From positions 2,016,001 through 2,080,000 of the forward strand of contig OZ253496.1 of NCBI GenBank assembly GCA_965262115.1: a stretch of DNA of 64,000 nt, written 5' to 3'. This document shows positions 3,405-50,180 of the stretch, piece by piece. A program made the position numbers and the translations under genes. Each line of letters starts with the position of its first letter. Position 1 is the stretch's first letter. This DNA is from Nitrospinales bacterium. GTDB taxonomy: Bacteria; Nitrospinota; Nitrospinia; Nitrospinales; VA-1. Under the pieces are notes generated by a model. The model was not told where the DNA came from. It did not search any database and saw only the letters and a program-made list of their open reading frames with translations.

Positions 3405-4058
3405 ATGAACTGGGTATCTAAAATTCTCGTCGTGTTGTTGCTGGCCCTCCCGGCCTGTTCGGGAGGAGACCTTTGCATAACCCAAGATTCTTCGTTGCAA
3501 TAGCTCCTCAGAATGACAAAATAGCCTTTTATTGTCATGCTGAGCTAGTGATATTTGACCTTTGAATTCTTGCCCCGTAGGGGTATCTCGAAGCATCTCG
3601 CTTTTCTGCTTTATAGACTTACGCAAAGGTCTCGTTCGGGAGTGGACTCCGTCACCAAAAAACGCTGGAGTAATTCCGAAAACACCGTCTCGATCGTCGA
3701 TATGACATCGAGAGATTTTCGCCTCATGGACGCAGGATCCAGACTGCAGGGAGCCATTGAAGAAAATCTTGAGACCACCGGTTATATCCTGGCCGGAAAG
3801 AACGCCCACTATCACCTAAAGTATAAGGTTTTGGAATTCGATGAAGGCAATCGAATGGCCCGAATCGCAACTATGGGCATGTCCGATTCCGCCAAAGCCC
3901 AACTGCGGGTGAAAGCCGCGCTTTACGATAACGGAGATATGGTCGGCGCCTGGAAAATCGACTCGTGGGTATCCGGAGGAATCACCGGCGGCTCCGAAGA
4001 CAATCTTTATGAAACCACCGCCAAAGAAATCGCCGACTACTTGAGAGGCGATTATTAA
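3405..4058 (+). pseudogene. DUF4410-like lipoprotein gene interrupted by a MITE
   Basis: ATG 3405 gives MNWVSKILVVLLLALPA-CSG (lipobox). Removing 3466-3642 restores a continuous frame into GVDSVTKKRW...DEGNRMARI. The insert carries an in-frame TAG. Confidence 0.85.
3466..3633. mobile_element. 168-bp MITE, copy 1
   Basis: TIRs GAGACCTTTGCATAA / TTACGCAAAGGTCTC; 9-bp direct repeat GTTCGGGAG at 3457-3465 and 3634-3642. Confidence 0.92.
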
Positions 4059-4092
4059 GCAAGACTCCTATCCATTCCTGGTTTATTCCTTT

Positions 4093-4788
4093 TCAAATAT
4101 CTTTGGCACAACGAAAGCCGATAAAGTTCAACTTCTCTTCAGGGGCCATCCAGTTACGAAACCATGAAGGTGAAAACTTAATCGTGAGATGGGTTTGCAA
4201 TAAGCCACCACGAACGACTTTGAATTTTTCCGCTTGCCCCACAAGCATGTAATCATCCGTCACCCACTCCCAGACATTATGACCCATACCATAAATGCCA
4301 TAAGGGCTGATCCAGTCCGTCCTCTTGTCCACCGGTTCCGGCATAAATCCTGAGAATCCGTTGTTGGGGTGATCGATAAAAATTTTCCAGGGCCACTTGC
4401 GCACATCCGTACCCCGCGCCGCTTTCTCCCATTCAATTTCGTTAGGCAAACGCTTGCCCTCAGCCTGACAAAAAGCCTCCGCCTCAGCATAGGTCACAAA
4501 CGCCACTGGCCAACGCGCCTTTTTAGGATTGAATGAATGTTGCGGTAAGAATTTTTTGTAGGCTTCGTGGCTCACCTCATACCGGTCAATAAAATAAGCT
4601 CCGGACTGCACCGGTTTCCCCCCCTGGGTTCCTAGTTCCTCCGCATCCCCCATGATGAATTCTCCAGCCGGAATATAAACCATCTTCTCAGGAACAACGA
4701 TCCCAGCAGGAACCTCTACAGATATCTGCTTAACGCTATAGGAATCGCAGGAAGACAGGAAAATTAAAAGAAGAAAAAAGCGGATCAT
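4093..4788 (-). CDS. FGE-sulfatase-domain lipoprotein
   Basis: Lipobox FLSSC; YFIDRYEV, RLPNEIEWEKAARG, NVWEWV, IGFRC. Confidence 0.85.
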   Translation of the reverse strand: MIRFFLLLIFLSSCDSYSVKQISVEVPAGIVVPEKMVYIPAGEFIMGDAEELGTQGGKPVQSGAYFIDRYEVSHEAYKKFLPQHSFNPKKARWPVAFVTYAEAEAFCQAEGKRLPNEIEWEKAARGTDVRKWPWKIFIDHPNNGFSGFMPEPVDKRTDWISPYGIYGMGHNVWEWVTDDYMLVGQAEKFKVVRGGLLQTHLTIKFSPSWFRNWMAPEEKLNFIGFRCAKDI

Positions 4789-4848
4789 GTAGGGAGACCA
4801 TTTACAATGATGGCCATTTTAGCAACCCCCCTAGCCCTCCTTATCAGG

Positions 4849-5057
4849 GAGACCTTTGCATAACCCAAGATTCTTCGTTGCAATAGCTCCTCAGAATGAC
4901 AAAATAGCCTTTTATTGTCATGCTGAGCTAGTGATATTTGACCTTTGAATTCTTGCCCCGTAGGGGTATGTGATATCCTCTTCATTAAACTTCATGCCCC
5001 GTAGGGGTATCTCGAAGCATCTCACTTTTCTGCTTTATAGACTTACGCAAAGCTCTC
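4849..5057. mobile_element. 209-bp MITE, copy 2 (copy 1 plus an extra 41-bp micro-element)
   Basis: Near-identical to 3466-3633; flanks CTTATCAGG / CTTGTCAGG; extra segment 4969-5009. Confidence 0.9.
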
Positions 5058-5066
5058 CTTGTCAGG

Positions 5067-5192
5067 GGGGAACTGGGCAAGAGTCTATTAGGCCGAGATA
5101 AAGTTTTGCTAGCCAATTAGAGCCATTGCCAGCTGGCCCCATGTTTATATTCTCACCTTAGCCTTCATGCCCCGGAGGGGTACGCCTAGTGG
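5067..5192 (-). repeat. Family H repeat carrying a 41-bp micro-element (5142-5182) in its terminal hairpin
   Basis: Removing 5142-5182 restores CTGGCCCCACGCCTAGTGG, identical to 50242-50260. Confidence 0.8.
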
Positions 5193-5941
5193 TTGTCCGG
5201 ACGTTCATCGAAAAAATGGAACACTTCGCCGCCGTTGATGGGCAGGGGGGTTTTGTCTAAGTCCAGGGGATGGTCGACACCCGGCTGGATAGTTCCATCT
5301 ACAGAATAAGGTCCGTTCATCGACCAGTAATTGCGCTTGCGCGAATCAAGAAATTTAATACTGGTGATGTATTTGATATTTTTGTAGCCATACTTGAAAG
5401 GCATGATCAACCTCAGGGGAAATCCATGATCGCGGCTCAACGGCTGGCCATCCATACGCAGGACAAAGAGGACACGGGGCCGGAGCAATTCTTCCAGCGC
5501 AAAACTTTCGTAATAGGAATCGGCGGACTGGATATAAACAAACTTTGCGGACGGATCGGGCTGGACCTGTTTCAACAGCTCTTCAAAGCGGAATCCCTCC
5601 CACCTGGCTTTGGCGGACCAGCATTCAACACACTTGAGCCGCGAAACCTGGGAATGCATTTTTAATCCGAACAAATCCTCATAAGCAAGACCGACGGGTT
5701 TTTTAACCATCCCCCCTATCGCCAGTCCCCAGTTTTGCATCTCCACACCGAGAAACGGATTAGCGCTGCGAATATGGAAACCGGGAGTATCCCGGTTCTG
5801 GACGTATTGCTTGGGAATGTTTTTGTCGTTACGAAAATCGTCTGCCCACCCGGATTTTTTCGGCATCAACGCCGACAAAGTAGTCAGGGAAAATATTTTC
5901 AGGAAATTTCTGCGATCAAATTTAAAAGGTGATGAACTCAT
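5186..5941 (-). CDS. Tat-exported molybdopterin oxidoreductase (MsrP/YedY/sulfite-oxidase family)
   Basis: DRRNFLK twin-arginine signal; CVECWS; HGFPLRL..PFKYGYKNIKYI. Confidence 0.88.
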   Translation of the reverse strand: MSSSPFKFDRRNFLKIFSLTTLSALMPKKSGWADDFRNDKNIPKQYVQNRDTPGFHIRSANPFLGVEMQNWGLAIGGMVKKPVGLAYEDLFGLKMHSQVSRLKCVECWSAKARWEGFRFEELLKQVQPDPSAKFVYIQSADSYYESFALEELLRPRVLFVLRMDGQPLSRDHGFPLRLIMPFKYGYKNIKYITSIKFLDSRKRNYWSMNGPYSVDGTIQPGVDHPLDLDKTPLPINGGEVFHFFDERPDNH

Positions 5942-5954
5942 ACCCTTCCTCCAA

Positions 5955-6755
5955 TCAACGCAAACCCAAAACGTCCTGCATATCGTAAACGCCGTTGGGC
6001 TGGCCTAAAATCCACTGCGCCGCACGAATGGAGCCCCGGGCGAAGGTCTCCCGGCTCTGGGCACGATGGAACACTTCAAAATTTTCTCCCATGCCGCCGA
6101 ATAAAACCCGATGCTCACCGATGATGTCTCCCGCCCGCAACGTGTGAATGCCGATTTCTTTCGGGGTGCGCACGGCAATGCCTTTTCTTCCATAAACGCC
6201 AACCTCTTCGAGGTTTCTTCCCAACGAATAGGCAACGATTTCTGATATACGCACGGCGGTGCCGCTGGGCGCATCCTTTTTAAACTTATGATGCGCCTCA
6301 ACAATTTCCACATCATATGCGTCCCCCAACACCCGTGCCGCGTCTGCAACCAGCTTGAACAAAACGTTAACGCCAATGCTCATATTGGGAGCCACGACAC
6401 AGGGAATTTTTTTGCCAATCTGCTCAATCTCTCCGCGTTGCTCCGGAGAAAACCCGGTCGTGCCCACCACCACAGACCTCCCTTTATCCGCAGCAGCGTT
6501 AAGGGTGAAAATACTTGAAGCCGGAGTGGTAAAATCAATTGCCACATCACAGGTTTCAAAAGCTTTTACAGGGTCATCCATCACTACGACTCCCTTGTTT
6601 CCGATCCCTGCTACTTCACCAAGATCTTTACCGATAACCTCGCTGCCTGCACGCTCTGTTCCTCCGCCCAGCTCCACACCCTCAATGTCTTCAATGCATG
6701 CGGCAATGGTCTTTCCCATGCGCCCGGCAATACCTATTACAAGAATCTTCGTCAA
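5955..6755 (-). CDS. dapB: 4-hydroxy-tetrahydrodipicolinate reductase
   Basis: GIAGRMG, GTTG, EAHHKFKKDAPSGTA. Confidence 0.97.
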   Translation of the reverse strand: MTKILVIGIAGRMGKTIAACIEDIEGVELGGGTERAGSEVIGKDLGEVAGIGNKGVVVMDDPVKAFETCDVAIDFTTPASSIFTLNAAADKGRSVVVGTTGFSPEQRGEIEQIGKKIPCVVAPNMSIGVNVLFKLVADAARVLGDAYDVEIVEAHHKFKKDAPSGTAVRISEIVAYSLGRNLEEVGVYGRKGIAVRTPKEIGIHTLRAGDIIGEHRVLFGGMGENFEVFHRAQSRETFARGSIRAAQWILGQPNGVYDMQDVLGLR

Positions 6756-6815
6756 AAATTTTTCCCTTCATTATTTCTTCATTGAACGCTTATTAAAGTC
6801 TCACTAGCTGTGAGA

Positions 6816-7688
6816 CTATGCCAAAGCGTAGGCGGCAAGTATTGCCTGCAATTGCGCCAGATGTTCCTCTGTAGGCGCACACAACGGCGGACGAAACTCA
6901 TTTTCAATTCGGCCCATGAGTGCCAGAGCAGCTTTTACCGGAATGGGATTGGTCTCGATAAACATGATGTCGTTCAACTTCAACAACTCGTAGTGCAGAG
7001 TTTTTGCTGTTTCCACATCCCCTGACCGGGCCGCCTGGACCAGTTTGGCAAACTTGCCGGGAACCAGATTAGCCGTCACCGAGATCACTCCTTTGCCGCC
7101 AATGGCGAGGATCGGCCAAGTCAGCGCGTCTTCACCCGAAATCACTTCAAAGTCCGGCCCACAGGAATCAATGATCTCACTGACCTGCACCAGAGAACCG
7201 GAAGCCTCTTTAATGCCGATAATATTCTTGATGCTGCTCAAACGCGCAACAGTGTCGGGCACCATATTGATGGCGGTGCGGCTGGGAACATTATAAAGAA
7301 CAACCGGCAGATCGGTCTCCTTTGCCACAGCAGAAAAATGCTGGAACAAACCCTCCTGGGTCGGCTTGTTGTAATAGGGCGTGATCAACAACGCTCCATC
7401 TGCGCCAATTTTCTGGGCGCGCTGGGTCAACTCCACCGCTTCCTGGGTCGCGTTCGACCCCGTACCCGCCAGAACGGGAATCCGTCCTTTGCAGTTATCA
7501 ACCGTGATCTGGATCACCTCTGCATGCTCGGCATGGTTTAAGGTGGCCGACTCACCAGTGGTGCCACAGGGCACGATTCCGTTGGTTCCATTTTCTATAT
7601 GAAACTCGATCAACCCGCGTAAGGCCGAGGCATCTACTTTTCCGTTTTTAAACGGAGTCACTATGGCAACAAACGAACCTTCGAACAT
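6816..7688 (-). CDS. dapA: 4-hydroxy-tetrahydrodipicolinate synthase
   Basis: GTTGESATL, PYYNKP, YNVPSRT, GIKEASG. Confidence 0.97.
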   Translation of the reverse strand: MFEGSFVAIVTPFKNGKVDASALRGLIEFHIENGTNGIVPCGTTGESATLNHAEHAEVIQITVDNCKGRIPVLAGTGSNATQEAVELTQRAQKIGADGALLITPYYNKPTQEGLFQHFSAVAKETDLPVVLYNVPSRTAINMVPDTVARLSSIKNIIGIKEASGSLVQVSEIIDSCGPDFEVISGEDALTWPILAIGGKGVISVTANLVPGKFAKLVQAARSGDVETAKTLHYELLKLNDIMFIETNPIPVKAALALMGRIENEFRPPLCAPTEEHLAQLQAILAAYALA

Positions 7689-7706
7689 GAGAACCTGATA
7701 GTTTGA

Positions 7707-8528
7707 TTAATATTCCGCAAGCGTGCCTTCAAAAGCTATGCGAGCGGGTCCTTCCAGATAAACCACCGAACTTTTGCCAGCGTCACCATTGGTCGCTTCA
7801 AAATCCACTTTCAAAATATCCCCGCCCCGGGTTTCCACTGCGACAGGAGGCTGAACCATATTTTTATAATAAGATAACAGGGCCGAGGCCACCACCCCCG
7901 TTCCACAAGCCAGGGTTTCGTCTTCCACTCCACGTTCGTAGGTGCGAATCTTAAGCGCCCGGTCACCAACCTTCTCGACAAAGTCGACATTGGTTCCGAC
8001 CGGGGCGAATGAATCGTGGAAACGGATGCCATGACCCGTCTCCTTCACATTCACGTTCTCGACATTATCAGAATAAATAATAGCGTGCGGCACGCCCGTG
8101 TTGAGGCTGTCCACCTGATATTCAGTTCCATTCAGGGCGAGGGCAATATCCTGCTGCAAATTTTCCGGCGCAGTGAGTTTGACCTTCACGATTGCTCCAT
8201 TCACCTCCGCACCAATGACCCCGGCCAGGGTTTCTAAAGTCATTTTGGCGGGAGCGATGTTCTTTTCCACCGCATAGCGGGCCACACAACGACCGCCATT
8301 GCCGCACATCTCGGCGGAGGAACCATCTTCGTTATAAAAATCCCATTTGATATCGGCTTTATCCGAGTTCTCGACAAAGATCACCCCATCCGCACCGATA
8401 GACATTTTGCGGTCGCACACGCGCCGGACAAAATCGAGCTTTTTGTCATCGTCTAGTACCGGCACCCGATTATCAATGATGATGAAATCGTTGCCACTGC
8501 CACTCATTTTTGTGAACTGAATCGCCAT
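7707..8528 (-). CDS. dapF: Diaminopimelate epimerase
   Basis: GSGNDF, EMCGNGGRC, ERGVEDETLACGTG. Confidence 0.97.
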   Translation of the reverse strand: MAIQFTKMSGSGNDFIIIDNRVPVLDDDKKLDFVRRVCDRKMSIGADGVIFVENSDKADIKWDFYNEDGSSAEMCGNGGRCVARYAVEKNIAPAKMTLETLAGVIGAEVNGAIVKVKLTAPENLQQDIALALNGTEYQVDSLNTGVPHAIIYSDNVENVNVKETGHGIRFHDSFAPVGTNVDFVEKVGDRALKIRTYERGVEDETLACGTGVVASALLSYYKNMVQPPVAVETRGGDILKVDFEATNGDAGKSSVVYLEGPARIAFEGTLAEY

Positions 8529-8724
8529 ATCCAAACTTATCTATTTAATATTGTATTCTTTCTTGAGATGCTGAATAACCCCTGAAGGGTGCAAACTGGC
8601 CCAAACAAACCATTTACGCTACCACCAGCCTACAGAGGTGAAGAGATTCTACCATACCGCTTGACACTGGGAAAGATTACCTTCAGGGCCAAAACAATAA
8701 ATGAGCGGTCTCTGAATTAATCGC

Positions 8725-8752
8725 TTGCAAATGTACGGCTTTAGCGTACAAT
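8725..8752 (+). promoter_or_regulatory. Sigma70-type promoter of higBA overlapped by a palindromic operator
   Basis: TTGCAA-16nt-TACAAT; inverted repeat TGTACG..CGTACA at 8732-8750; ATG only 6 nt downstream, so probably leaderless. Confidence 0.65.
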
Positions 8753-8758
8753 ATTGCC

Positions 8759-9043
8759 ATGATAATAAAGAGGATCCGCCACAAGGGATTAAAGAGATTC
8801 ATTGAGAAAAATGATCCCAAAGGCCTCCCCTCTTATAAAGTTGAAAAAATTCGAGACATTATCACCGCTCTGATGGTGGCGGAAAACTTAAAAGATTTAC
8901 CGGTATTACCAGGGTGGCGGCTTCACAAATTGACGGGTCAGCGCAAAGGCATGTGGAGCATTTCGATCTCTGGAAACTGGCGGATCACATTCGAAATACA
9001 AAGTGACGAAATACATGATTTGAATATGGAGGATTATCACTGA
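8759..9043 (+). CDS. higB: HigB (RelE/ParE-family) toxin
   Basis: RHKGLK...LHKLTG.RKG.WSISISGNWRITF....DYH. Confidence 0.9.
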   Translation: MIIKRIRHKGLKRFIEKNDPKGLPSYKVEKIRDIITALMVAENLKDLPVLPGWRLHKLTGQRKGMWSISISGNWRITFEIQSDEIHDLNMEDYH

Positions 9044-9336
9044 TGTCCAATACAGCAATGATGCCATCTCATCCTGGGGAATTTATTCGCAGACATGTTT
9101 TGGAACCCATTGAACTTTCGATCAGCAAAGCGGCTGAAGTTCTTGGCGTAAGACGGGCGACCCTGTCCGATCTGGTCAATGGCAAAACAAGCCTGTCCCC
9201 GGAAATGGCCCTGAGACTGGAAAAAGCGTTCGACATCAAGATGGATTTCCTGCTACGCATGCAAGCACTCTACGACTCAGCAAGCATGCGGCAATCCAAA
9301 AAGAAGATTGATGTTGTACGGTTTCAGGTGAGGTAG
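9043..9336 (+). CDS. higA: HigA antitoxin (HTH-XRE)
   Basis: HPGEFI...AEVLGVRRATLSDLVNGK.SLSPEMALRL; coupled to the toxin stop. Confidence 0.9.
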   Translation: MSNTAMMPSHPGEFIRRHVLEPIELSISKAAEVLGVRRATLSDLVNGKTSLSPEMALRLEKAFDIKMDFLLRMQALYDSASMRQSKKKIDVVRFQVR

Positions 9337-9555
9337 GAAACGAAGCAAGCCAGGCGAACGCAACCACAGATGGACACCGATGGACGCGGATAGCCGATTG
9401 ATTTTAAAGCTCCCTCTTTTTCAAAGAGGATTACAGAATTATGTCCGGTTATCGGGAACGACAAGACTGGCTCCGCCAAAACGGTGCGGGGATGGATTTC
9501 TAAAAGACTAAAAGGTATTTATATTTACAATGTTACACCTCAAAATGGAGTGCTT

Positions 9556-10285
9556 ATGCCTATGTCGGATGCGGACAAAAACTTTATAAGACTGGTCAGA
9601 GAACTCATCGCTATTGAATCGGAGGGTTTTTCAGTTGAACCCAACGAGAAAGAGAAACTTGAAGCTGATTTTCATGAGGCTTGGCTGAAAATAGATAGAG
9701 TGGGGCTTCGAGAATACCAAGACCCTGGTTTAGCAGAATGCATGAGGTTTTTAATCCAAGCAACCAAAGACGACCCTTTTAAGATTAATGAAGATTGTAG
9801 CGACTGGCACGACTGGTGGAGAGATGAAGGGCTAGACCAGTGGCCCTCTCATATCAGAAGATATTTTGAATTGGTTCCACCCTATATCCGGGCCGGGTCT
9901 AGCATACCCAAGGATGAGAACCCTTTATTCAGAATCAAGATGGTGTTTTATTTATGAAAATTTTAATGCATGCATTGTTCTTTCGAGAGGCATTATAGAA
10001 GCCGTTGGAAAATATGAAATACCGTGGGTCAAGCTCTTAAAATTTAGTAATAAATCTAGTGGGGAAAAGGTGTAAGCCGCAGAAATTGTTAAGTATATGA
10101 AGGAGGAAGGGGAAATCGTAAGACCTGAACTAGCAGATAATATTTTGAAAAAGATCGTATACAAAGCCAACGATATTCTTCATAACGGGAAAACGGCATC
10201 GAAGGAAGAGTGTTTAGAAGCTACTGAGTGTGTAAAAACTCTTTTGGAGGAAGTGTACGCCAAAAAACCCTATAAAAACAATTAA
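9556..10285 (+). pseudogene. Disrupted gene with a DUF4145/HEPN-like C-terminal region
   Basis: Three ORF pieces: frameshift near 9915-9930 into CFIYENFNACIVLSRGIIE, in-frame TAA at 10073-10075, then KANDILH. Confidence 0.55.
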
Positions 10286-10404
10286 TCGTAAACTAAAGGC
10301 ACTTTTGGCCCACCCGCACTGAATGTAAAACACCCCAACCCTCGTGGTATTCCACCCTGGCCTTCTGCCCGGAACGGGTACTTTGAGAAAGAGGGAGAAA
10401 AAGC

Positions 10405-10515
10405 AACCCCCCATTCCCCCCTTATCAGGGGGGAACGGGGCAAGGGCTTAATTGATCCGAGACGACTCTTCGCCAGCCAAAGAGAGCTATTGCACACTGG
10501 CCCCACGCCGAGTGG
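10405..10515 (-). repeat. CCCCCTTATCAGGGGG hairpin plus family H repeat abutting the MMPL stop
   Basis: CCGAGACGACTC..GCCAGC..GCTATTGCACACTGGCCCCACGCCGAGTGG. Confidence 0.75.
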
Positions 10516-13227: not shown

Positions 13228-13313
13228 GGAATTTACAATTCAGGAAATGAGCAAGAGCACTTTGAGGCCATCGATACTTCCAACTCACCTAAATTAGCCA
13301 TTGCTCATTTAAT

Positions 13314-13406
13314 CCGGCATGACGCTGGTAGTTGGCGTGGCCTGTTCAGCCGAGACAACTCGTTGCCAGCAATAAAAGTTTTGCCGGCTGGCCCTACGCC
13401 GAGTAG
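13314..13406 (-). repeat. Family H repeat
   Basis: AGCCGAGACAACTCGTTGCCAGC..CTGGCC-CTACGCCGAGTAG (CTAC/GTAG stem variant). Confidence 0.75.
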
Positions 13407-16196: not shown

Positions 16197-16275
16197 AACC
16201 CCTCCGGGGCATGTGTAATATTTCTTCATTTGCATTCATGCCCTGAAATGGTAAAAACTAAGGAAAAATTTCACA
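16197..16275. repeat. Two nested micro-elements: a plus copy (16214-16253) inside a minus copy
   Basis: Removing 16214-16253 leaves the reverse complement of TGTGAAATTTTTCCTTAGTTTTCATGCCCCGGAGGGGTT. Confidence 0.7.
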
Positions 16276-18263: not shown

Positions 18264-18344
18264 CCAGCAATAGCTCCTAAAGCCAAGAGATCGACTGCTA
18301 GCAGTACGTGATATTCTTCCTAAACATTCAGGGGTAAAAAGCTA

Positions 18345-18455
18345 TTTACCCCTTGGGCTTTTAAGCCCGTCCCGAAGCGCAGATCGTTGTGTCCTGTTTT
18401 GATTAACCCGAACAGTTGCCTGGGCCACTGAGCCCGCATCGGCAAGGCTGGGAGA
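18345..18455 (+). ncRNA. IS110 bridge RNA (target- and donor-binding loops), 5' part apparently missing
   Basis: TTTACCCCT-hairpin(GGGCTTTTAAGCCC)-GT-CCCGAAG, then ACAGTTGCC-hairpin(GGGC..GCCC)-GGCAAG-GCTGG. Guides match the flanking target and the element right end. Confidence 0.75.
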
Positions 18456-19420
18456 CCAAATTATGAATCAGAAACCCCATTTTATTGGCATCGATATTTC
18501 TAAACTCCATCTGGATGTTGCTGACAGCATGACTCAAGAAACCTGGCAAACCGCTAACAATGAAGAAGGGATTGCTGGTTTGGTCGAGAGTTTATCCGCC
18601 TTAAATCCTCCATTGATCGTTTTGGAAGCCACAGGCGGCTTAGAGATCCCGTTGGCTTCGGCCCTGGTTGCGGGTCGACTGCCAGTAGCCGTGGTCAACC
18701 CACGGCAAGTTCGTGATTTTGCCAAAGCCACCGGGAAACTGGCAAAAACCGATGTCATTGATTCTCTTGTGCTGGCCCATTTTGCCAGGGCCGTACGTCC
18801 TGAGGTCAGGAAAATCAAAGACGAAGAATCTCTTGAACTCTCAGCTCTAGTGACACGCCGTCGCCAGTTGATCGAGATGCTGACCAAAGAAAAAACCCGT
18901 CTAAAACAAGCTCCAAAATGGATATGTAAAGACATTAAGGAGCATATCGAATCTCTTAAAAAACGCTTGCGAAAAATCGATGGCGACCTTTCCAGAACCA
19001 TCAAAAACAGTTCTGCCTGGCGTGAGCACGACCAGATCATACAAAGTGTTCCCGGTGCCGGTCCCGTTCTGGCTGTCAACCTCTTGGCCGGGGTTTCGGA
19101 ACTTGGAGTTCTTAATCAGAAGCAAATCGCCGCCCTCATCGGTCTCGCTCCCCTCAATCGGGACAGCGGAAAGTTCGGTGTATCCGGGGCGGCCGCGCCA
19201 ATGTGCGTGCCGCTTTATACATGGCCGCCGTCACTGCCATGCAGCATAATCCCGTGATTCGTACCTTTTACACACGCCTCATCGAAAAGGGCAAACCCTT
19301 TAAAGTTGCCATTACCGCATGCATGAGAAAGTTATTAACGATCATCAATACCATGATCAAAACAAAAACACTCTGGAATGAAAATCTCATTGCCAGCACT
19401 TGACATTTAACACAGTTGCT
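18352..19420 (+). mobile_element. IS110-family (IS621-like) element, defective
   Basis: CT core at both junctions (18352-18353, 19419-19420); TTGACA -35 box at 19400-19405; flanks rejoin to TACCCCTTCGGGGCATGAAG. Confidence 0.82.
18463..19403 (+). pseudogene. IS110 DEDD recombinase, frameshifted
   Basis: IGIDISK, LEATGG, KTDVID, SVPGAG, GLAP..RDSG; frameshift near 19175; C-terminus RAALYMAA...ACMRKLL in another frame. Confidence 0.92.
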
Positions 19421-19454
19421 TCGGGGCATGAAGACAAATGAAGAGGACATCACA

Positions 19455-19794
19455 AAGATAACTGCCGCCTTTTTTAATATGTCCCGCTCCATACGAAGGC
19501 GAGCGTTTTCTCGCCGCAACTGCTGCAACTCATCTCCCGGCTTAAGCTGTCCTTTGCCGGGAAACGCATTCCCCTGATCCTCCTCATACTCCTGTTTCCA
19601 GCGACCCAGAAGGGCAGAACGGATTCCCAGATCCCGGGACACCCGGGCAATGCTATCGCCTACTTCAATAACCAATCGAACCGCTTCTAACTTGAATTCT
19701 TTACTGAAACTCCTGCGTTTGGTTCCCATAAAAACACCTCCAAAAGTGTATTATCCACACTTTTCGATGTGTCCACCAATTCAGGGGAAGATCA
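19455..19794 (-). mobile_element. IS3-family remnant (left end plus orfA, truncated)
   Basis: orfA RRSFSKEFKLEAVRL...LRRENARLRMERDILKKAA; left end TGATCTTCCCCTGAATTGGTGGACAC; no orfB. Confidence 0.85.
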
Positions 19795-20054: not shown

Positions 20055-20093
20055 CGCGATATTTTTCCTTAAACTTCGTGCCCTGCAGGGGTA
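20055..20093 (+). repeat. Micro-element inserted into a GTCATT..GAGGAGC..GACGAAGA|ATCC REP-like motif
   Basis: CGCGATATTTTTCCTTAAACTTCGTGCCCTGCAGGGGTA. Confidence 0.7.
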
Positions 20094-20169
20094 ATCCGGG
20101 GCTATGCATCGGTCACGTAATCCGCAAATTTTTCAACTTAGCAAAGGCTTCAGATTCCGTGATCAATTT

Positions 20170-20451
20170 AGCCCCATCATCCCGCCATTGATGTCCTGGA
20201 ACAGTGTCAGCCATCTGATGAAGGAACACTATGGTTTAGCCATGAAGTTCAAGGATATTCTTGCGACTTATAAATCGGCCGAAGACCTGATTAATATCGG
20301 GGCTTACACCCGCGGCAGTAATCCAAAAATTGATCAGGCTATTCAAAAATACGAACTTATGATTCCCTACCTCAAGCAGGGAATTGTAGAAAGTGTTGAC
20401 TGGCGAACCAGTATGAATGAATTGAAAAAAATTCTGGAGGATGAATCTTGA
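20170..20451 (+). pseudogene. fliI: 3' remnant of flagellar export ATPase FliI
   Basis: HPAIDVL/NSVS.LM (frameshifted), then ATYKSAEDLINIGAY.RGSNPKIDQAI; most of the gene is absent. Confidence 0.82.
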
Positions 20452-20881: not shown

Positions 20882-20888
20882 TGGGCAA

Positions 20889-39059: not shown

Positions 39060-39125
39060 GTCATGCTGGGCTAGTGATATTTGACCTTTGAATTCTTGCC
39101 CCGCAGGGGTATCTCGAAGCATCTC
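39060..39125 (+). repeat. GTCATGCTG..TCGAAGCATC REP-like motif carrying a micro-element (39074-39111)
   Basis: Nearly identical to the interior of MITE copies 1 and 2. Confidence 0.8.
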
Positions 39126-39194
39126 GCTCCTATGATTTTTCGACTTGCGTAGCGGTAAAAAATTGTTTCTAACTGTTTGCGGAGATATTCCTCC

Positions 39195-39743: not shown

Positions 39744-39835
39744 CTTATTACTGCTGACAACTGTGTCCTCGGCTCCAGGAGCCATTGCCCAATTTACCCC
39801 TCCCAGGGGAATGGGCCGAGAGGCCGACTGAGGGC

Positions 39836-40807: not shown

Positions 40808-40813
40808 CCATTT

Positions 40814-42484: not shown

Positions 42485-42668
42485 CGCAGGGCCAGTGAGC
42501 AATAGCTTTAATTTGCCAGCAAAAGGTATAGGCGGCTTGATGAGCCTTTGCCCAATTGCCTCCCCTGCTAAAGGACGCGCAGGGCCAGTTTGCAACAACC
42601 CGTTGGGCCGCGAACGCCATTGCCAGCGGTCAAAAGATATTGCAAGTTACCAGTGGAGGTGCTCCACG
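42478..42668 (+). repeat. Tandem family H repeats
   Basis: CTGCTAGCGCAG-GGCCAGTGAGCAATAGC... second GGCCAGT ... AAAGATATTGCAAGTTACCAGTGGAGGTGCTCCAC (also seen at 39840-39877). Confidence 0.72.
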
Positions 42669-42756
42669 AGATTTTTAGAAAAATTTATCATTTTATGGTA
42701 GGCTTAGGCCCTTTATTATTCCCCTCCCAACCATTCTTGAATGAGAGATCAAAGCG

Positions 42757-44298
42757 ATGAAAATTGGTGTTCCCAAAGAAGTTCATGTTGGCGAAAAACG
42801 GGTGGCCACCACCCCGGAGGTCGCAAAACAACTTATCAAACTGGGTTTTGAAGTCGCGATTGAGGCAGGTGCCGGTTCGGCCGCCCATTATTCAGATGCT
42901 TCTTACGTCGAAGCGGACGTAACGGTTGTTAAAAATTCCCAGGAGATTTGGACCGAAAGCGACATTATTTTAAAAGTCCGTGCACCGGAGCAGAATAAAG
43001 GCGAAATCGATTTACTGCATGAAAAGCAGATATTGATCACTTTTCTTTGGCCGGCGCAGAATCCGGAATTGCTCCAGAAGCTGGCAGAGAAAAAAGTGAC
43101 GGCTTTGGCGATGGATAGCATCCCGCGCATATCCCGTGCACAAAAAATGGACGCGCTCAGCTCGATGGCGAACATTGCCGGATACCGTGCGATTGTTGAA
43201 GCTGCCCAGCATTTTGGCAGGTTCTTCACCGGGCAGATCACGGCGGCGGGTAAGATTCCTCCTGCTAAAGTCATGGTGATCGGCGCAGGGGTTGCTGGAC
43301 TCTCTGCCATTGGTGCTGCGAAAAGTATGGGTGCCATTGTGAGAGCTTTTGATACCCGACCGGAAGTGAAAGAACAGGTCGAGAGTATGGATGCGGAGTT
43401 CCTGGAACTCGATTTTGAGGAAGAGGGTTCGGGCACCGGCGGTTACGCAAAAGTGATGAGCAAGGAATTTATTGAAGCGGAAATGGCTCTGTTCGCGGAA
43501 CAGGCGAAGGAAGTGGATATTATTATCACCACCGCGCTGATTCCCGGAAAACCAGCACCGGAACTGATTAAAGAAGAAATGGTCGCTTCCATGAAAGACG
43601 GGAGCGTGATTGTAGACCTCGCGGCGGAACAAGGAGGTAACTGCAAGTTAAGCCAGGCGAACGAGGTGGTTCAAGCCTATGGCGTTTCGATCATCGGTTA
43701 CACCGATTTGCCCAGTCGTTTGGCAGGACAGTCCAGCCAGTTATATGCCACGAATTTGCGCCATCTGCTTACGGACATGTGTCCGGATAAAGATGGCAAC
43801 GTGATAGTCGATTTTGATGATGAAGTGGTTCGCGGAGCCACAGTTGTTAAGGATGGAGAGATTACCTGGCCGCCACCTGCACCAAAACTTTCGGCGGCAC
43901 CCCCAAAGGCAGCTGAAAAACCTGCGGAGCCTGTGGAAATCAAGGAAGAGAAACCCTCGGTGGCGGGCCCATTTATCACCTTTGGCGTGGGGGCTCTGGC
44001 CTTGCTTGGCTTGGGTTCCGTCGCACCCGCTTCCTTCATGGCCCACTTTACGGTTTTTGTCCTGGCCTGCTTTGTTGGTTACATGGTCATCTGGAATGTC
44101 AAGGCTGCTTTGCATACGCCGCTCATGAGCGTGACCAATGCTATCAGCAGTATCATTATTATTGGCGCTCTTTTGCAGATCAGTTCGGAAGAAAAGGCGA
44201 TCGTGTGGGTGGCCGGGTTTGCGGTGCTGATTACATCCATTAATATTGCAGGCGGATTCGGGGTAACACGCCGCATGCTCGAAATGTTTCGTAGATAG
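42757..44298 (+). CDS. pntA: NAD(P) transhydrogenase alpha subunit
   Basis: [43 protein letters not shown]. Confidence 0.97.
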
Positions 44299-44309
44299 GA
44301 GGCGAGAAG

Positions 44310-45704
44310 ATGAGTGAAGGTATCGTAACCGCCTCTTATGTCGGGGCAACTATTTTATTTATTCTGGCGTTAGGCGGATTGAGCAATCAGGAAACCGCAA
44401 GGCGCGGTAACCTTTTTGGAATGATCGGCATGGCCGTGGCCCTGCTTGCCACGATGTTCGCCGTGACAGCGAACCTGGAAATTCTCATTGTCGGCATGCT
44501 AATCGGTGCGAGCATCGGCCTGGTTCTGGCCAAGCGGGTGCAGATGACGCAAATGCCCGAACTGGTTGCCATGTTGCACAGTTTCGTAGGGCTGGCGGCG
44601 GTTCTGGTTGGATTTGCTAATTTTATGGACCCGGGACGTTTGCAACATTACACCGGTGTTGAATTGACCATCCACGATGTGGAGACTTATCTGGGAATCC
44701 TCATTGGTGCCATCACCCTGTCAGGTTCTGTCATCGCGTTTGGAAAACTGAGCGGCAAGATCGGCGGTAATCCCATGTTAATTCCGGGTCGGCATTGGTT
44801 CAACCTGGGCCTGCTGCTTGGTTCCATCTATTTCTGTGTCGTATTTGTTGAGCAATCGGCCGCAGGGGGTGGACTCAATCCTCTGTTGATCATGACAGGA
44901 ATCGCGTTGTTGTTCGGGATTCATATGGTCATGGCTATCGGCGGTGCCGACATGCCGGTTGTGGTTTCCATGCTCAACAGTTATTCCGGCTGGGCTGCTG
45001 CTGCTACCGGTTTCATGCTCAATAACGACCTGCTCATTGTCACTGGCGCGCTGGTCGGCAGTAGTGGTGCTATCCTCAGTTACATCATGTGCCGGGCGAT
45101 GAACCGTAAGTTTCTGGCGGTTATTGCTGGCGGATTCGGCACGACAACAGGGAGGGGTTCCGCTTCAGCTGAAGAGCAGGGTGAAGTGGTCGCGTTGCAA
45201 GCTCCCGAAGTTGCCAACCTGTTGGCGGATTCTAAAGAAATCATGATCATTCCGGGTTATGGCATGGCGGTGGCGCAGGCACAACATATCGTCAATGAAA
45301 TCACCAAAACTCTCAGTTCCAAAAAAATAAATGTGCGTTTTGGCATTCATCCTGTTGCGGGGCGAATGCCGGGGCATATGAACGTCTTGCTGGCGGAAGC
45401 CAAGGTGCCTTACGACATCGTTTTTGAAATGGATGAAATTAATGACGACTTTCCCGACATTGATGTTTCCATCGTCATCGGCGCCAACGACATTGTCAAT
45501 CCTTCTGCGCAAACCGATCCGGACAGTCCGATTGCCGGTATGCCGGTTATGGAATGTTGGAAAAGTAAAACCACCATCGTGCTGAAACGGAGTATGGCGA
45601 CCGGTTATGCAGGGGTGCAGAACCCATTGTTCTTTAAAGAGAACACGCGCATGTTGTTTGGCGATGCCCGAACCAGTCTGGATGAGGTTTTCAAAAACCT
45701 TTAA
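44310..45704 (+). CDS. pntB: NAD(P) transhydrogenase beta subunit
   Basis: [39 protein letters not shown]. Confidence 0.97.
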
Positions 45705-45858
45705 AGGGTGGGTGCCAAAAGAAATGTCCGCTGGAGCCAGAATATTTTCCCGGACGGAAACCTCCGGGAATAGTTTTGGGCTCTATAGATTTTCCCTTCT
45801 GTTTTATTAGCGATCAGCAAATCACCCTCCCGGTTCCAATCTATGCCATAAGGATTGT

Positions 45859-46176
45859 ATGCCCAAAGCGCACAGTAAAAATGAAATTTATATGGGTATG
45901 GTGTTGATGGGCGCCACCGGACTGGCTATGGGCTGGGTGATACACAGCCCGCTTCTAATGACTATTTCAGGACTCTTGGGATTGGTGGTTGGTGGATTTA
46001 TAGGTTGGCTGGGCGGTCGGCGTTATATGTTCATCATCTGTCTGGGAATTTTGATCGGTGCTTTTTTTGGCTATCGCACCGGCGATCAGGATATTCTCAT
46101 CATTGCCGCAGGAAGCGGCGGCGCCATCGCCGGGTTCATGGGAGCGCAAATAGAACAGTTTTTCAACCGCCACTAG
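45859..46176 (+). CDS. Small glycine-rich membrane protein
   Basis: Four Gly-rich hydrophobic segments. Confidence 0.65.
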   Translation: MPKAHSKNEIYMGMVLMGATGLAMGWVIHSPLLMTISGLLGLVVGGFIGWLGGRRYMFIICLGILIGAFFGYRTGDQDILIIAAGSGGAIAGFMGAQIEQFFNRH

Positions 46177-46343
46177 GCGCCAGCGTGGCGCTGGACTCAT
46201 TGGGAAATAACTCTTTGTGGCACGATTCCCACCGGGCGTGGCCCGGCGGTTAGCGGAACACGGGGTTCCGCTTTCACAAGACCAATACAATCAATGCGTT
46301 ACCAAAGGTCAAGCAGAAAGGCGAGAAAAAACAGGGCGTTACA

Positions 46344-47414
46344 TTAGGAGGAATAAAATGAGGAGGCTTTATATTGCACAATACCCCGCGACATGAGGAC
46401 ATTGAGGACAGCGACTCCGGGAACACCCAGTATCATGCCCGCAAGTCCAAACAGTTCTCCGCCTAGCAAAACGGCCAGGATCACGGCTACCGGGTGGAGC
46501 CCGATGTTATCACCCACCACGCGGGGTGTGATGACCATGCCTTCCAGAGCTTGGACCACGCCGAAGACACCGGCGACAGCCAGCACCGGCACCCACTCCT
46601 GAGTATGCATAAAAGTCAAAAGCGCAGAGGGCACAAAACCCAAAACCAGTCCCAGATAAGGAACCAGGTTGACCAGCCCCGCCATCATTCCCAGCGACAG
46701 GCTCATCGGGGTGTCGCACAAAAACAGACCGATCGAATACATTGTTCCCATCAAACCAGCGACTACTAACTGCCCACGCACAAAACGCGAGAGCACCTGG
46801 TCAATTTCCAGAACAATGTCTTTGGTTTTTTCCTGAAACCGGGGCGGCACCAGTTTTAATAATTTTTCATTGATCGAGTCAAAATCACGCAGCAAATAAA
46901 ACATCACCACAGGAATGATCACCAGATTGGCAAACATCAGAATAATATTGAACAGGTTTGAAATCGACCCCCAGATAAATTTACCGGAAAACTGCAGGAT
47001 CTTCATTGGCAGTTCCCCAAAACGCGACAGCCCTTCATTGACAAACTCTTCAACCTTTGCAGGATCTAATCCGCTGATCATATCCAGGATTGGACGAAAC
47101 CATTTCTGGAAGATTCCAATATAGGTGGGTATATTTTTTGCGAGACTTTCCGCCTGCATGCTAAAAATCGGTACCAGTAAAAGTCCAGCACCCACCGCCA
47201 GAAAGAAAAAAGCCAGCATCAAGACCAAAACGGAAAGGGTTCTTGAAAGCTTAAAAGAAACCAACCGATCTACCAGGGGGTCCAGCAGGTAAGCCAGCGC
47301 AAACGCGATAAAAAAGGGAGCCACGACGCGGCGAGAAAAATAAAGCGCAACGCAGATTCCCAGAGTCACTGCAAAAGAAATAAATAACAGGTTTTTATTT
47401 TTTTCCTGATTCAT
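46344..47414 (-). CDS. AI-2E family transporter
   Basis: AYLLDPLV, FYLLRD, FVRGQL, VPYLG, GLHPV. Confidence 0.92.
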   Translation of the reverse strand: MNQEKNKNLLFISFAVTLGICVALYFSRRVVAPFFIAFALAYLLDPLVDRLVSFKLSRTLSVLVLMLAFFFLAVGAGLLLVPIFSMQAESLAKNIPTYIGIFQKWFRPILDMISGLDPAKVEEFVNEGLSRFGELPMKILQFSGKFIWGSISNLFNIILMFANLVIIPVVMFYLLRDFDSINEKLLKLVPPRFQEKTKDIVLEIDQVLSRFVRGQLVVAGLMGTMYSIGLFLCDTPMSLSLGMMAGLVNLVPYLGLVLGFVPSALLTFMHTQEWVPVLAVAGVFGVVQALEGMVITPRVVGDNIGLHPVAVILAVLLGGELFGLAGMILGVPGVAVLNVLMSRGIVQYKASSFYSS

Positions 47415-47493
47415 TTTTACAGGGCCTCTATTTATTCGGTAATTTTTCCTTGGGCAACTCGCAGGCCCTTATTTCATAAGGGCCGATCATGGC

Positions 47494-47532
47494 TGTTATA
47501 TTCTTCATCAGCTTTCATGCCCCATAGGGGTA
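47494..47532 (+). repeat. Micro-element copy
   Basis: TGTTATATTCTTCATCAGCTTTCATGCCCCATAGGGGTA. Confidence 0.72.
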
Positions 47533-47557
47533 CAAAAACAATTTTTAAAGATACCCT

Positions 47558-48532
47558 TTACATGTCCGACATAGATAACGGCGGAGCTTCAGGAACCTTC
47601 TTCACCGGCGCCTCCGCTCCTTTTTCCCGATAACGGTGGAATGAAGGGACAAGAAAATCTGCAAGCTTTTTACTGGCAATGTTAAAAGCTTCCAGTTCCG
47701 CCTGCAAAGCCTGCGCATGCTTGATCGTGGAAAACTCTGCCTTGGCCGCGATCAACGATGACTCCAAAGTCGACACCATTTTGATGCTGATATTGGCTTG
47801 AACCGTTTTGGTGTTCTCTTTCGCATTTTTTCCGCGCAGGCGGGACACAGCCGTACCCACGATAACGATATCAGCGTCCGCTTTCAACCCAATACTCTTT
47901 GCAGATTTAAGATCGCCCTTGATGGCTTTGAGGACGGTTGTTTCAGAAATTATTTCGCGCAGTTGTTCTCGGCCTATCACTTCTATTCCTTCCTCCATCA
48001 GGTTTTTGGTCAACTGGGTTTCTGAAATTGGAAAGATGTCCCAAAAAGAATTGACCGGAGCAGAAGTAAAACTTTTCTCTTTTATCAGCACAGCCACTTT
48101 ATTTTCACTGATCGGACCGGCAATCACCCCCAACCCTGCCAAGGCCTGGCTCACCGCAGAGGAAAAAAAACGCATTTCCAATCTCACCTCACTGGTTTGA
48201 TTGACCATGTCATCATAGGCTTCTACAAAGCGATAGCTTTTTACATAACGAGAAGAACGCCGCATAATTTTCCGGAGGTCTCTCTGGCTGGCTTCAAACT
48301 CCTCATCCCCCATCATTTCTTTCAACGCTTCTTCCAGGCCATTCTTCAGAGCCAGGTTCACGGCTTTTTCCCGGGCGACCACATAGTTTTCCCCTTTTGC
48401 TTGAACGGTTGCGGAACCCTCGTAAACATCGCCCATCTTTTGTTGCGCAAACACTTCGGCATTAAAAAATCCGCCAACAGTAAAGAGCCAGAAACCCAGC
48501 AGAAGAGACGGAACCCATCTCGTCATGTTCAT
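47558..48532 (-). CDS. Exported hypothetical protein (possibly FlgT-N / CsgG-like fold)
   Basis: Signal peptide; AREKAVNLAL..., ADADIVIVG. Confidence 0.6.
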   Translation of the reverse strand: MNMTRWVPSLLLGFWLFTVGGFFNAEVFAQQKMGDVYEGSATVQAKGENYVVAREKAVNLALKNGLEEALKEMMGDEEFEASQRDLRKIMRRSSRYVKSYRFVEAYDDMVNQTSEVRLEMRFFSSAVSQALAGLGVIAGPISENKVAVLIKEKSFTSAPVNSFWDIFPISETQLTKNLMEEGIEVIGREQLREIISETTVLKAIKGDLKSAKSIGLKADADIVIVGTAVSRLRGKNAKENTKTVQANISIKMVSTLESSLIAAKAEFSTIKHAQALQAELEAFNIASKKLADFLVPSFHRYREKGAEAPVKKVPEAPPLSMSDM

Positions 48533-49293
48533 GCCCTCTTCTTTCGTCGCGCCTTAACGGGTTCAGGCTCATTCATGACAAGTTTTTTCAACGATTTAAT
48601 TTCTTTGGAACTGAGAAATCGGCAGGCCCCCAGGGGAAGACCTGTCAGGTTTAATCCTGCAAAGTGGGTGCGCTGGAGTTTGATCACCGGGTGGCCGATA
48701 TGCTCACACACTTTTTTGATATGATGGTTTTTGCCTTCCACCAGCGTTAAAATGAGGAAGCAGTTTTTGCCGCTGACCCTTCCCACCTTTGCCTCCATAG
48801 GCTTGAACTTGCTGTCTTCAAGATGCACCCCCCGGGCCAGCCTTTTTAAGGTTTTTTCATTCGGCACTCCCGACACCTTGACCTTATAGGTGCGGGGCAC
48901 CGCATACTTGGGGTCCAGCAGTTTCTTTGCAAGCAGGCCATCATTGGTGAACAGCAATGCGCCCTGGGTATTGTAATCCAGACGGCCGACGGGAAAAACC
49001 CGGGCCTCCACCACCCGAACATATTCCATAACAGTGGTTCGCCCCCGCTTGTCATCATTCATCGTGGTCAGGCAACCCGTAGGCTTGTTCAAAATAACGT
49101 AGGCCGATTCCTGGCGGCGGGGAATCAGTTTTCCCTGCACCCTGATAGGGTCCTTGACCGGATCGGCCAGAGACCCCAACTTAATCACAACCTGATCGTT
49201 CACACGAACCTTACCCTGCTCAATCCATCTTTCCGCTTCACGGCGAGAAGCAAGCCCGGCATCGGCAATTATTTTTTGCAAACGAATTTTCAT
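48529..49293 (-). CDS. rluB: RluB-like pseudouridine synthase
   Basis: RLQKIIADAGLASRR (S4 domain), PVGRLDY; next to scpB. Confidence 0.88.
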   Translation of the reverse strand: MKIRLQKIIADAGLASRREAERWIEQGKVRVNDQVVIKLGSLADPVKDPIRVQGKLIPRRQESAYVILNKPTGCLTTMNDDKRGRTTVMEYVRVVEARVFPVGRLDYNTQGALLFTNDGLLAKKLLDPKYAVPRTYKVKVSGVPNEKTLKRLARGVHLEDSKFKPMEAKVGRVSGKNCFLILTLVEGKNHHIKKVCEHIGHPVIKLQRTHFAGLNLTGLPLGACRFLSSKEIKSLKKLVMNEPEPVKARRKKRA

Positions 49294-49319
49294 GATACAG
49301 GGAAAAAATTAAAGAGAGG

Positions 49320-49404
49320 GCGGAGAACCTCCGCTGGTAACTGGCAATATCTTTATCTTGCGCGCAAACGCTTTCTCGGCATAACTTGCCTCCCTCGCTA
49401 GAGG
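49320..49404 (+). repeat. Family H repeat
   Basis: GCGGAGAACCTCCGC..GCAATATCTTT..TCTCGGC..CCTCGCTAGAGG overlapping the scpB stop. Confidence 0.72.
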
Positions 49405-50018
49405 GCACCGTCTTCAATGTCAGACTCGGCCTCGCTGGTCGAGGCCTCGGAAGCCGAGAATTCGATTTGAGTTTGAAGTGGAGGATCTTCCCCTTCCAGC
49501 TCTTCCCTCAAATCTTCCAGCGTGGGTAAATCGCTCAAATCCTTCAGGCCAAAATACTCGAGGAATTTTTGTGTCGTCCGATACATGATGGGTCGGCCCG
49601 GAACTTTTTTCCTGCCAGCTGGGCTAATCACTTTTTTCTCTAAAAGGGTCTTGAGCACACCGCTTGAGTCCACCCCGCGGATTTCATCCACCTCCTGACG
49701 GGTGAGCGGTTGCTTGTAGGCAATGATCGACAGGGTATCCAGACTGGGTTGAGACAACCGGGTAGAGCGATCAAGTTTCAGGAACTTCCTGATAAAATCG
49801 TTGTATTCATGCCGGGTGCAAAGCTGATAACCATCCGCCACTTCGGTGATCTGCAAGTTGCGCGAGTTATACTCTTCCCTCAATTCGTCAAGAATGGATT
49901 GCAGTTGACCTTTATCGGTTCCATCCAGGAAAATTTTGCAAAGTTCACTGGCATTGATCGGCTGGTCTGCCGCCAAAAGAATATTCTCAACAATCGATTT
50001 TAATTCTTCATGTTCCAT
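49398..50018 (-). CDS. scpB: SMC-Scp complex subunit ScpB
   Basis: TLSIIAYKQP.TR.EVDEIRGV, PGRP.MY.TT.KFL..FGL. Confidence 0.95.
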   Translation of the reverse strand: MEHEELKSIVENILLAADQPINASELCKIFLDGTDKGQLQSILDELREEYNSRNLQITEVADGYQLCTRHEYNDFIRKFLKLDRSTRLSQPSLDTLSIIAYKQPLTRQEVDEIRGVDSSGVLKTLLEKKVISPAGRKKVPGRPIMYRTTQKFLEYFGLKDLSDLPTLEDLREELEGEDPPLQTQIEFSASEASTSEAESDIEDGAL

Positions 50019-50073
50019 ATTTATTCCAGAGTTACCAAAGCCATCCACTCTAGCAGGCTACTGCCTCCATGAT

Positions 50074-50180
50074 CGTCACCCTAAGTTTATCGAAGGGTGC
50101 GTGAACAACAGGCGAGATGCTTCGACATACCCCTTTGGGGCAAGAAGGCAAAGGTTAATTCCCACTAGCTCAGCATGACA
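50074..50180. repeat. Inverted REP-like pair with a micro-element (50128-50165, minus strand)
   Basis: GTCACCCTAAGTTTATCGAAGGG ... GATGCTTCGACA[TACCCCTTTGGGGCA..CCCAC]TAGCTCAGCATGAC. Confidence 0.72.

Follow-up and report, generated by a model that had tools for sequence, protein, structure and literature searches.

How does a repeat of about 40 nucleotides, too small to hold a gene, come to be inserted with base-exact ends in other repeats, beside itself and even within itself? The question is raised by a window of 64,000 nucleotides of a Nitrospinales bacterium (assembly GCA_965262115.1, contig OZ253496.1, positions 2,016,001 to 2,080,000), which lies in a host genome (G000) available as a single contig of 2.68 Mb and 93.9% complete. 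A first-pass annotation of the window had described a mobile micro-element of 38-41 bp, lacking terminal inverted repeats (TIRs) and target-site duplications (TSDs), and had proposed that a single-strand HUH/Y1-type or other enzyme encoded elsewhere moves it. The element is real and was mobile in the recent past. In addition to what was described at first, its first base covaries with base 24, insertion can leave a two-base scar in the target, and a resident IS110 has been retargeted to it.

A hidden Markov model (HMM) seeded on the window copies gave, after iteration, 391 genome-wide hits at E<0.1, with 343 of these outside open reading frames (ORFs) of at least 100 amino acids; the best E value of the seed model on a shuffled genome was 0.12. 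Motif matches numbered 223 in G000 against 0, 0 and 1 in three shuffles, and a strict pattern yielded 219 full-length copies in 124 site classes. The strict copies are 39 (105 copies), 40 (48) or 41 (63) nucleotides long, so that the range is 39-41 and not the 38-41 first given, 38 being seen in just three of 219. Rfam gave no match in the window. To describe the anatomy, 555 distinct copies from G000 and from fetched loci of relatives were collapsed to 318 insertion events; since a pattern defines this set, it favours conserved ends to some extent, which does not apply to the pairings. Numbered on the 39-nucleotide form, bases 1-8 are a conserved head that starts YGT, bases 9-20 a variable, pyrimidine-rich interior that takes up the length differences, and bases 21-39 comprise TTC, a variable base 24 and a stem (25-30 with 34-39) around a three-base loop. 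Bases 22-25 read T-C-(A/G/T)-T, the 3' end is fixed as GGGTA, and information falls steeply beyond bases 1 and 39. The initial consensus omits about 8-10 interior bases and, read with single Ns, has no match within three edits. The 3' hairpin is as first described, but its loop does not vary freely, being GNA in 304 of 318 events; the GNA triloop is a stable DNA fold. The closing pair 30-34 is C-G in 211, G-C in 57 and T-A in 23 of the 318 events, and a G-T wobble in the stem on the top strand indicates that the top strand is the folded one. Folding energy is ordinary in comparison with shuffles (z -0.5 to -1.3), and the structure is called on covariation, not on folding energy.

All copies listed for the window by the first-pass annotation were recovered, four of them beginning one base earlier than it had placed them (at 3547, 4930, 39073 and 50166). 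The 39-nucleotide copy at 3547..3585 (+), an A1/T24 variant, lies within a CGTC/TGTC-type palindrome, a host site of which G000 has 26 near-identical copies without the element. The same host repeat carries the 39-nucleotide copy at 4930..4968 (+), which is followed directly, head to tail, by a 41-nucleotide copy at 4969..5009 (+); as claimed, the second MITE (miniature inverted-repeat transposable element) equals the first plus exactly those 41 bases, with one mismatch in about 164 aligned bases. Deletion of the 41-nucleotide copy at 5142..5182 (+), an unscarred allele in a host repeat of about 100 bp (the D family), likewise yields the sequence of the empty allele of this site at 50242..50260 (+). 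Deletion of the 40-nucleotide inner element at 16214..16253 (+), inserted in inverse orientation after base 22 of an outer copy, restores an intact 39-nucleotide copy on the minus strand (16197..16275), and this outer element is common to the related genomes G013 and G019. The remaining 39-nucleotide copies lie at 20055..20093 (+; C1/G24 variant in a GIY-YIG-type end repeat), 39073..39111 (+; A1/T24 variant), 47494..47532 (+) and 50128..50166 (-; A1/T24 variant), and an internally deleted copy of 30 nucleotides at 18307..18336 (+). Two copies are new: one of 39 nucleotides at 536..574 (+; HMM E 2.6e-8) and a degenerate one of 38 nucleotides in a DUF559-type end repeat at 10343..10380 (+).

Throughout G000 an empty allele was found for 50 of the 124 site classes, and for 45 of these the best fit involves neither gain nor loss of a base. 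Flank overlaps of at least two bases occur in 22 of 318 events, against 29 after shuffling, and there is no excess of TSDs; the absence of TSDs and TIRs is thus borne out, and a gene-less sequence of 39-41 nucleotides with exact insertion answers the description of a minimal non-autonomous element. In approximately 1 Mb aligned to G013, G019 and G007 (90-94% identity, covering parts of each genome) there are six clean orthologous one-element indels of 39-41 bp. A seventh candidate was dropped on account of 15 flank mismatches, and a separate comparison of relatives contributed one further one-element difference. A 41-nucleotide copy is also present in orfA of IS3 in 15 of the 15 G000 copies that cover the site, and the IS3 of G016 is empty there. 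Hence neither outcome named at first as contrary to mobility, a lack of polymorphism among relatives or copies that are all fixed parts of one larger element, describes what was found. Most other differences between relatives are whole host repeats gained or lost; a strain-level contig comparison also gave whole-host differences, with no clean 39-41-bp skip among the joints listed. Tandem and nested insertion, too, are as first reported: there are runs of identical tandem units, and self-insertion occurs after bases 9, 19, 30 and 39 and, in reverse orientation, after base 22. One nested composite of about 80 nucleotides is found at several unrelated sites, from which composites appear to move as units.

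The pairing of the ends bears on the form in which the element travels. Base 1 is the complement of base 24 in 286 of the 318 events, kin among which are not independent, where 500 shuffles give 160 on average and 184 at most; the pairs are T-A (179), C-G (101) and A-T (6), and the adjoining columns have no pairing excess. Two different 1-24 pairs occur within 13 of 48 multi-member interior classes, and the variant at one and the same host site is T1/A24 in G030 and A1/T24 in G000. Base 24 pairs with the actual right neighbour of the inserted element in just 58 of 318 events. The simplest reading is that the stem extends over an end-to-start joint (pairs 25-39, 24-1 and 23-2); such a joint would be present in a circle, between tandem units or where a linear strand folds so that its ends abut. 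The covariation points to a circular intermediate. The geometry is the same as in the guide rule of TnpA-REP, where the bases before and after the cut are set by guide bases 4 and 3, respectively (PMC3479197, PMC8266576, sections cited), and in the +1 pairing described for ISDra2 in the cited part of PMC5934647; this is a resemblance and not a test of enzyme class.

The preference for other palindromes is confirmed, the hosts being mostly end repeats of GIY-YIG and DUF559 modules: CGTC/TGTC-type palindromes flanking small GIY-YIG genes and C-rich palindromes flanking DUF559 genes. Further hosts are the D family, a degenerate repeat of about 100 bp, and the element itself, and each host is struck at few fixed positions. 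The insertion-site consensus, derived from 205 distinct targets, is loose, with G at -5 in 62%, a purine at -3 in 79%, A at -2 in 2% and A/T at +2 in 77%. No pairing signal was found between the variable interior and the flanks, and a programmable guide in the interior was rejected for that reason. As to the hosts themselves, the GIY-YIG and DUF559 loci with their flanking palindromes (L057, L063-L068, L070, L084-L097) resemble REPtrons. CGTC-type repetitive extragenic palindromes (REPs) are described as having no dedicated transposase, with GIY unmentioned, in the sections cited of PMC3733652; small GIY-YIG and DUF559 nucleases are candidates for their enzymes. The D family is palindromic with small flanking hairpins, has 508 HMM hits and forms tandem arrays (e.g. 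window 445-600 and 50230-50270). It is very dynamic among relatives, indels of about 9, 18 and 27-29 bp being common, and no associated gene was found.

Insertion also alters some targets. In 69 pairs of filled and empty sites, mismatches peak at -4 (17) and -3 (16), followed by -5 (11), with about 5 at most other positions; the edge position +16 is also high, an effect of letting the nearest matches differ at that point. Filled sites at self position 30 have the left flank GAGCC in 24 cases and GCCCC in 7, whereas empty sites in G000 and relatives read GCCCC in 339 and GAGCC in none, so that insertion here usually turns CC at -4/-3 into AG; the AG form accompanies at least eight different inner variants. 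In an orthologous case G013 is empty with CC and G000 is filled with AG, in the same outer copy. The reverse D site has AG in 17 and CC in 4 filled copies, against AG in 0 of 102 empty ones, counts that may represent two or few events multiplied by the host. The DUF559-type site and some other hosts have no change at -4/-3, and scar-bearing copies are not independent of one another, so that Fisher values calculated from them are overstated. The apparent scars of self position 19 and of one GIY-YIG-type repeat are left out of the count, as they are probably single events multiplied by a mobile composite or host. Shuffling of halves among composites is a possible source of the scar.

What could move such an element? 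The reading favoured here, to which we give somewhat less than an even chance, is that it is made into a single-stranded DNA circle, and pasted as such, by a trans-acting HUH strand transferase of a Y1- or RAYT-like kind. The 3' hairpin, together with the four-base stretch on its 5' side (22-25), would serve as a REP guide does. Pairing of base 25 with the last base and of base 24 with the first would hold both ends for joining; the circle, nicked at the end-to-start joint, would be inserted at a single-stranded or nicked place of lax sequence preference (G at -5, a purine at -3, A at -2 hardly ever). Speculatively, preferred sites could be opened by the small GIY-YIG or DUF559 nucleases or by hairpin extrusion. 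HUH chemistry is the best guess in that the 1-24 pairing matches the TnpA-REP guide rule, and the absent TSD and the identical tandem runs also count for HUH joining.

A number of observations weigh against this HUH-pasted circle. IS200/IS605 elements have a leading/lagging orientation bias, and none is seen here relative to the replichores (118 of 219 strict copies, 66 of 125 singletons and 202 of 391 HMM hits, with origin and terminus placed by GC skew), although host repeats may scramble the orientation of the element and so mask a bias. Targets are not picked by pairing with the variable bases of the element, and a target may lack the A|Y dinucleotide that a guide would require. The change at -4/-3 is not expected from HUH joining and is left unexplained by this model. 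The enzyme, moreover, did not come to light: no Y1, RAYT, IS200 or IS91 gene was found in the 93.9%-complete single contig of G000 to back the HUH/Y1 source suggested at first. Y1_Tnp had no hit in G000 at E<=0.001, and its lone weak hit falls in a reading frame that overlaps an unrelated gene; the RAYT model NF047646 had no cut-off hit in five genomes, its weak G000 hit overlapping a membrane protein gene. The IS200 model NF033573 exceeded its cut-off in one of 12, Y2_Tnp was absent from G000, the genome searched with it, and a scan of G000 ORFs for HUH motifs gave no candidate judged plausible. Y1 is present in 12 of 38 relatives, at loci without a flanking copy save for one partial hit, and neither Y1 nor RAYT matched in G013 or G007 despite 301 and 84 strict motif hits, respectively, those of G013 being on one contig. 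There is also no recurring neighbour gene among the loci around the motif. It is possible that the mobiliser is a transient phage- or plasmid-borne enzyme or belongs to a family missed by the profiles.

A bolder proposal, possible but rather unlikely, is that the self-splinting single-stranded circle of 39 nucleotides is itself the complete transposon, and that a strand-transfer enzyme outside the HUH, DDE, IS110 and retro classes pastes it at openings in mobile hairpins and rewrites two target bases as it does so.

A route through RNA seems improbable, but would account for the scar: a transcript or small circular RNA would undergo reverse transcription where the DNA is nicked, and -4/-3 would be rewritten when the second end is joined imprecisely. 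The flank change is indeed one-sided and lies beside the 5' end, identical tandem units are found, and the interior is highly diverse, with 183 distinct interiors among 211 intact events and four young inserts that are 4-6 changes away from any other strict copy in G000. An RNA route is also said to have been proposed once for the small dispersed repeats (SDRs) of cyanobacteria. Set against these points, there is no series of 5' truncations, the short 3' pieces being leftovers of nested insertions, and orientation is unbiased with respect to transcription (95 same, 93 opposite). The way the closing pair changes suits a top-strand GNA triloop and does not suit a UNCG loop on the opposite strand. 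Reverse transcriptase (RT) hits in G000 are all broken, and they fall in the first part of the contig, where GC is low and simple repeats abound; RT is found in 10 of 34 relatives, as is IS110, neither tracks copy number, and RT is missing from G019, G007, G018 and G004. The interior distance to the nearest neighbour, 1.6 against about 0.75 expected from decay, could stem from mutagenic copying or from the partial sampling of relatives.

There is a similarly modest chance that no dedicated transposase exists, breaks made in host palindromes by GIY-YIG, DUF559 or similar nucleases being repaired by copying a filled repeat or by capture of a folded 39-mer, with co-conversion of the flank, in a homing-like spread. 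This would suit the hosts, which are the repeats at the ends of small GIY-YIG and DUF559 genes, the fixed positions per host with little common sequence, and the flank bases from -5 to +1 that similar variants have in common. Small GIY-YIG genes are present in 13 of 22 genus relatives and were not found in the two that have zero copies. However, exact ends are also seen at targets unrelated to other hosts, such as IS3 orfA, and the junction covariation requires selection on a free element. The GIY-YIG query was, moreover, negative in the element-bearing G031 and G029 and positive in G024 and G056, where a strict motif match is absent.

The odds are poorer for a recombinase with a 4-nucleotide staggered exchange, be it IS110-like or a tyrosine recombinase that, in the manner of integron integrases, works on a folded single strand; -4/-3 would then change via heteroduplex. 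In the cited part of PMC11208158, the top-strand cut of IS621 follows position 9, and its partners are unlike at positions 6-7; these two correspond to -4/-3, where the mismatches of the 69 pairs are concentrated. The element end and the target have, however, no 2-nucleotide core in common, and no reciprocal change was seen at the 3' end of the element. The resident IS110 cuts inside the element rather than at its ends, and is not its mobiliser. A double-stranded DNA circle of 39 bp is not feasible. A tyrosine-recombinase-like gene flanked by D repeats (G000:C1:2164612-2165397; L309:2612-3394; 261 amino acids) was considered and rejected, being a conserved single copy with incidental flanking; it ends short of the catalytic Tyr usual in such enzymes, and neither G013 nor G007 yielded it. 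This gene occurs in 52 of 120 phylum genomes, stops just past the LLG motif in the 30 loci inspected, and is possibly a domesticated DNA-binding protein. Very improbable, lastly, is passive carriage of a few ancient insertions in mobile host repeats, with the element itself now immobile: hosts have multiplied many copies (24 in one site class), relatives differ mostly by whole hosts and some variant/host pairs recur in another genus, but as regards past mobility the idea is largely refuted by the 124 site classes of G000 and the 205 targets overall, by lineage-specific exact inserts between genomes about 93% identical, by the many different variants at one host position and by the nested composite at several unrelated sites.

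The distribution of the element follows one lineage. Of 120 phylum genomes, 38 have its 3' motif, including 20 of 22 other members of the genus and six of six of genus g10, with few outside the family; in a GTDB scan, 80 of 80 loci among the matches listed belong to Nitrospinota. Among viral contigs there are 16 loci, with full-length copies in three contigs, short matches elsewhere and no shared gene. One viral contig of 50 kb (L042-L044, L047, L048, L055) has at least five copies in the same kinds of host repeat, and is a possible vehicle for horizontal spread.

The IS110 family of G000 is a parasite retargeted to the element. A single IS110, with 24 Pfam matches, has all 26 of its right junctions within the hairpin of the element, with a CT core on the bottom strand, and G019 has an intact element at the position of a G000 IS110. 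Its left end is non-coding and structured and holds a target-like stretch, a make-up that would suit a bridge RNA; its donor ends resemble what we take to be those of IS621. In the window, IS110 occupies 18340..19420 (+) and severs, at the hairpin, the 41-nucleotide copy in IS3 orfA, of which the 5' 36 nucleotides remain at 19419..19454 (-); the IS3 orthologue of G016 is the empty counterpart. The pair 18347/19454, first read as one split copy, is thus to be replaced by this 5' part. The left part of the recipient IS3 (orfA, HTH_Tnp_1) lies at 19455..19786 (-), its outer boundary being approximate. The window IS110 copy has lost its first 120 or so non-coding bases and carries a frameshifted ORF (18463-19257) of 264 amino acids, against 316 in the intact form. 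At 18340-18350 the internal target-like stretch is joined to a different flank, and the truncation suggests a rearrangement at the guide sequence; an IS110 with a duplicated left end is found at G000:C1:2144779-2146007.

In IS3, the 41-nucleotide insert drives the -1 frameshift product into a stop (15 copies, e.g. C1:411155-412451), so that OrfAB should not be made. The IS3 copies are nearly identical nonetheless, indicating recent spread, and no intact IS3 copy was found in G000; supply in trans or transient exact excision would be possible explanations. Beside this cluster of IS3, IS110 and repeats, a 115-amino-acid ORF at 20104-20451 (+) matches the C-terminal domain of a FliI/EscN-type ATPase, the remainder of the gene not being adjacent. 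At the far start of the contig (G000:C1:1 to about 60000) there are simple repeats and broken RT fragments, and GC is 0.37-0.47 over the first 100 kb, which suggests that non-bacterial sequence has been joined on.

How repeats shorter than 50 bp spread in bacteria is an old question. The present family combines exact ends with a covarying junction pair, a reproducible scar and dated insertions in the hundreds, which makes the mechanism testable with an oligonucleotide of 39 nucleotides. An enzyme that writes about 40-80 nucleotides at a nick without duplication would be of interest as a tool. The element also shapes the genome of a marine nitrite oxidiser, interrupting the frameshift region of IS3 and providing all landing sites of a 26-copy IS110. 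No description of it was found in the literature, in a search conducted mostly outside subscription journals and supplements.

Among known systems, the SDRs are similar in description. SDR1-8 of Nostoc and its relatives, reportedly described by Elhai et al. in 2008, are said to be 21-27 nucleotides long. They are reported to be likewise tiny, gene-less and lineage-restricted, to nest in themselves and in other repeats, and to have compensatory pairing; to our knowledge no enzyme is known for them, nor for the CGTC REPs. The likeness is one of description, and the present element is longer, at 39-41 nucleotides, and belongs to another phylum. The GC clusters and double-hairpin elements of fungal mitochondria are similar in being mobile hairpins of 30-50 bp that insert in tandem and nested, with an unclear enzyme; they belong to eukaryotic organelles, often have short TSDs, and are likened by description. 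Derivatives of IS200/IS605 have in common with the element the lack of TSD and TIR, a strand-asymmetric hairpin and a presumed single-stranded circle. They differ, however, in having two subterminal hairpins and a fixed target of 4-5 nucleotides, against one hairpin and a loose target, and in a lagging-strand bias and a TnpA, neither of which is seen in G000. A TIR-type MITE requires TIRs and a TSD, and IS91 or Helitron-like elements a Y2 or RepHel enzyme and a fixed target at the ori end; G000 has no Y2_Tnp and the element no fixed target. An IS110 donor would have a 2-nucleotide core at both junctions, whereas the left flank of the element at -2/-1 is mostly not TA.

REPs and their doublets (REPINs), with their RAYTs, are alike in the short GC-rich hairpin, the hundreds of extragenic copies and the role as IS110 target, and in a 4-nucleotide stretch at the 5' foot of the hairpin whose third and fourth bases agree with the dinucleotide that spans the joint (PMC3116915, PMC8266576, PMC3479197 and PMC3733652, sections cited). 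The guide rule for bases 3 and 4 would hold at the proposed end-to-start joint, in the 286 events, and does not hold at targets. The REP tag GTAG or CGTC is absent from the element. REPINs move as inverted doublets and the element as a single unit of 39-41 nucleotides, with both ends base-exact and a guide-like base 24 that covaries with base 1; a REP has a flanking cognate RAYT, whereas no RAYT was found in G000 or beside any copy. The IS621 that lands on REPs is paralleled by the resident IS110, which also has a CT core and targets a dispersed hairpin repeat, and insertion into another repeat is paralleled by that of SDR5 into HIP1 (cited parts of PMC11208158 and PMC5861425, the latter a citing paper). 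Taken together, the element is SDR-like and partly like a single REP with its guide, and it differs in defining features from REPs, IS200/IS605 derivatives, MITEs, IS91 elements and IS110 donors.

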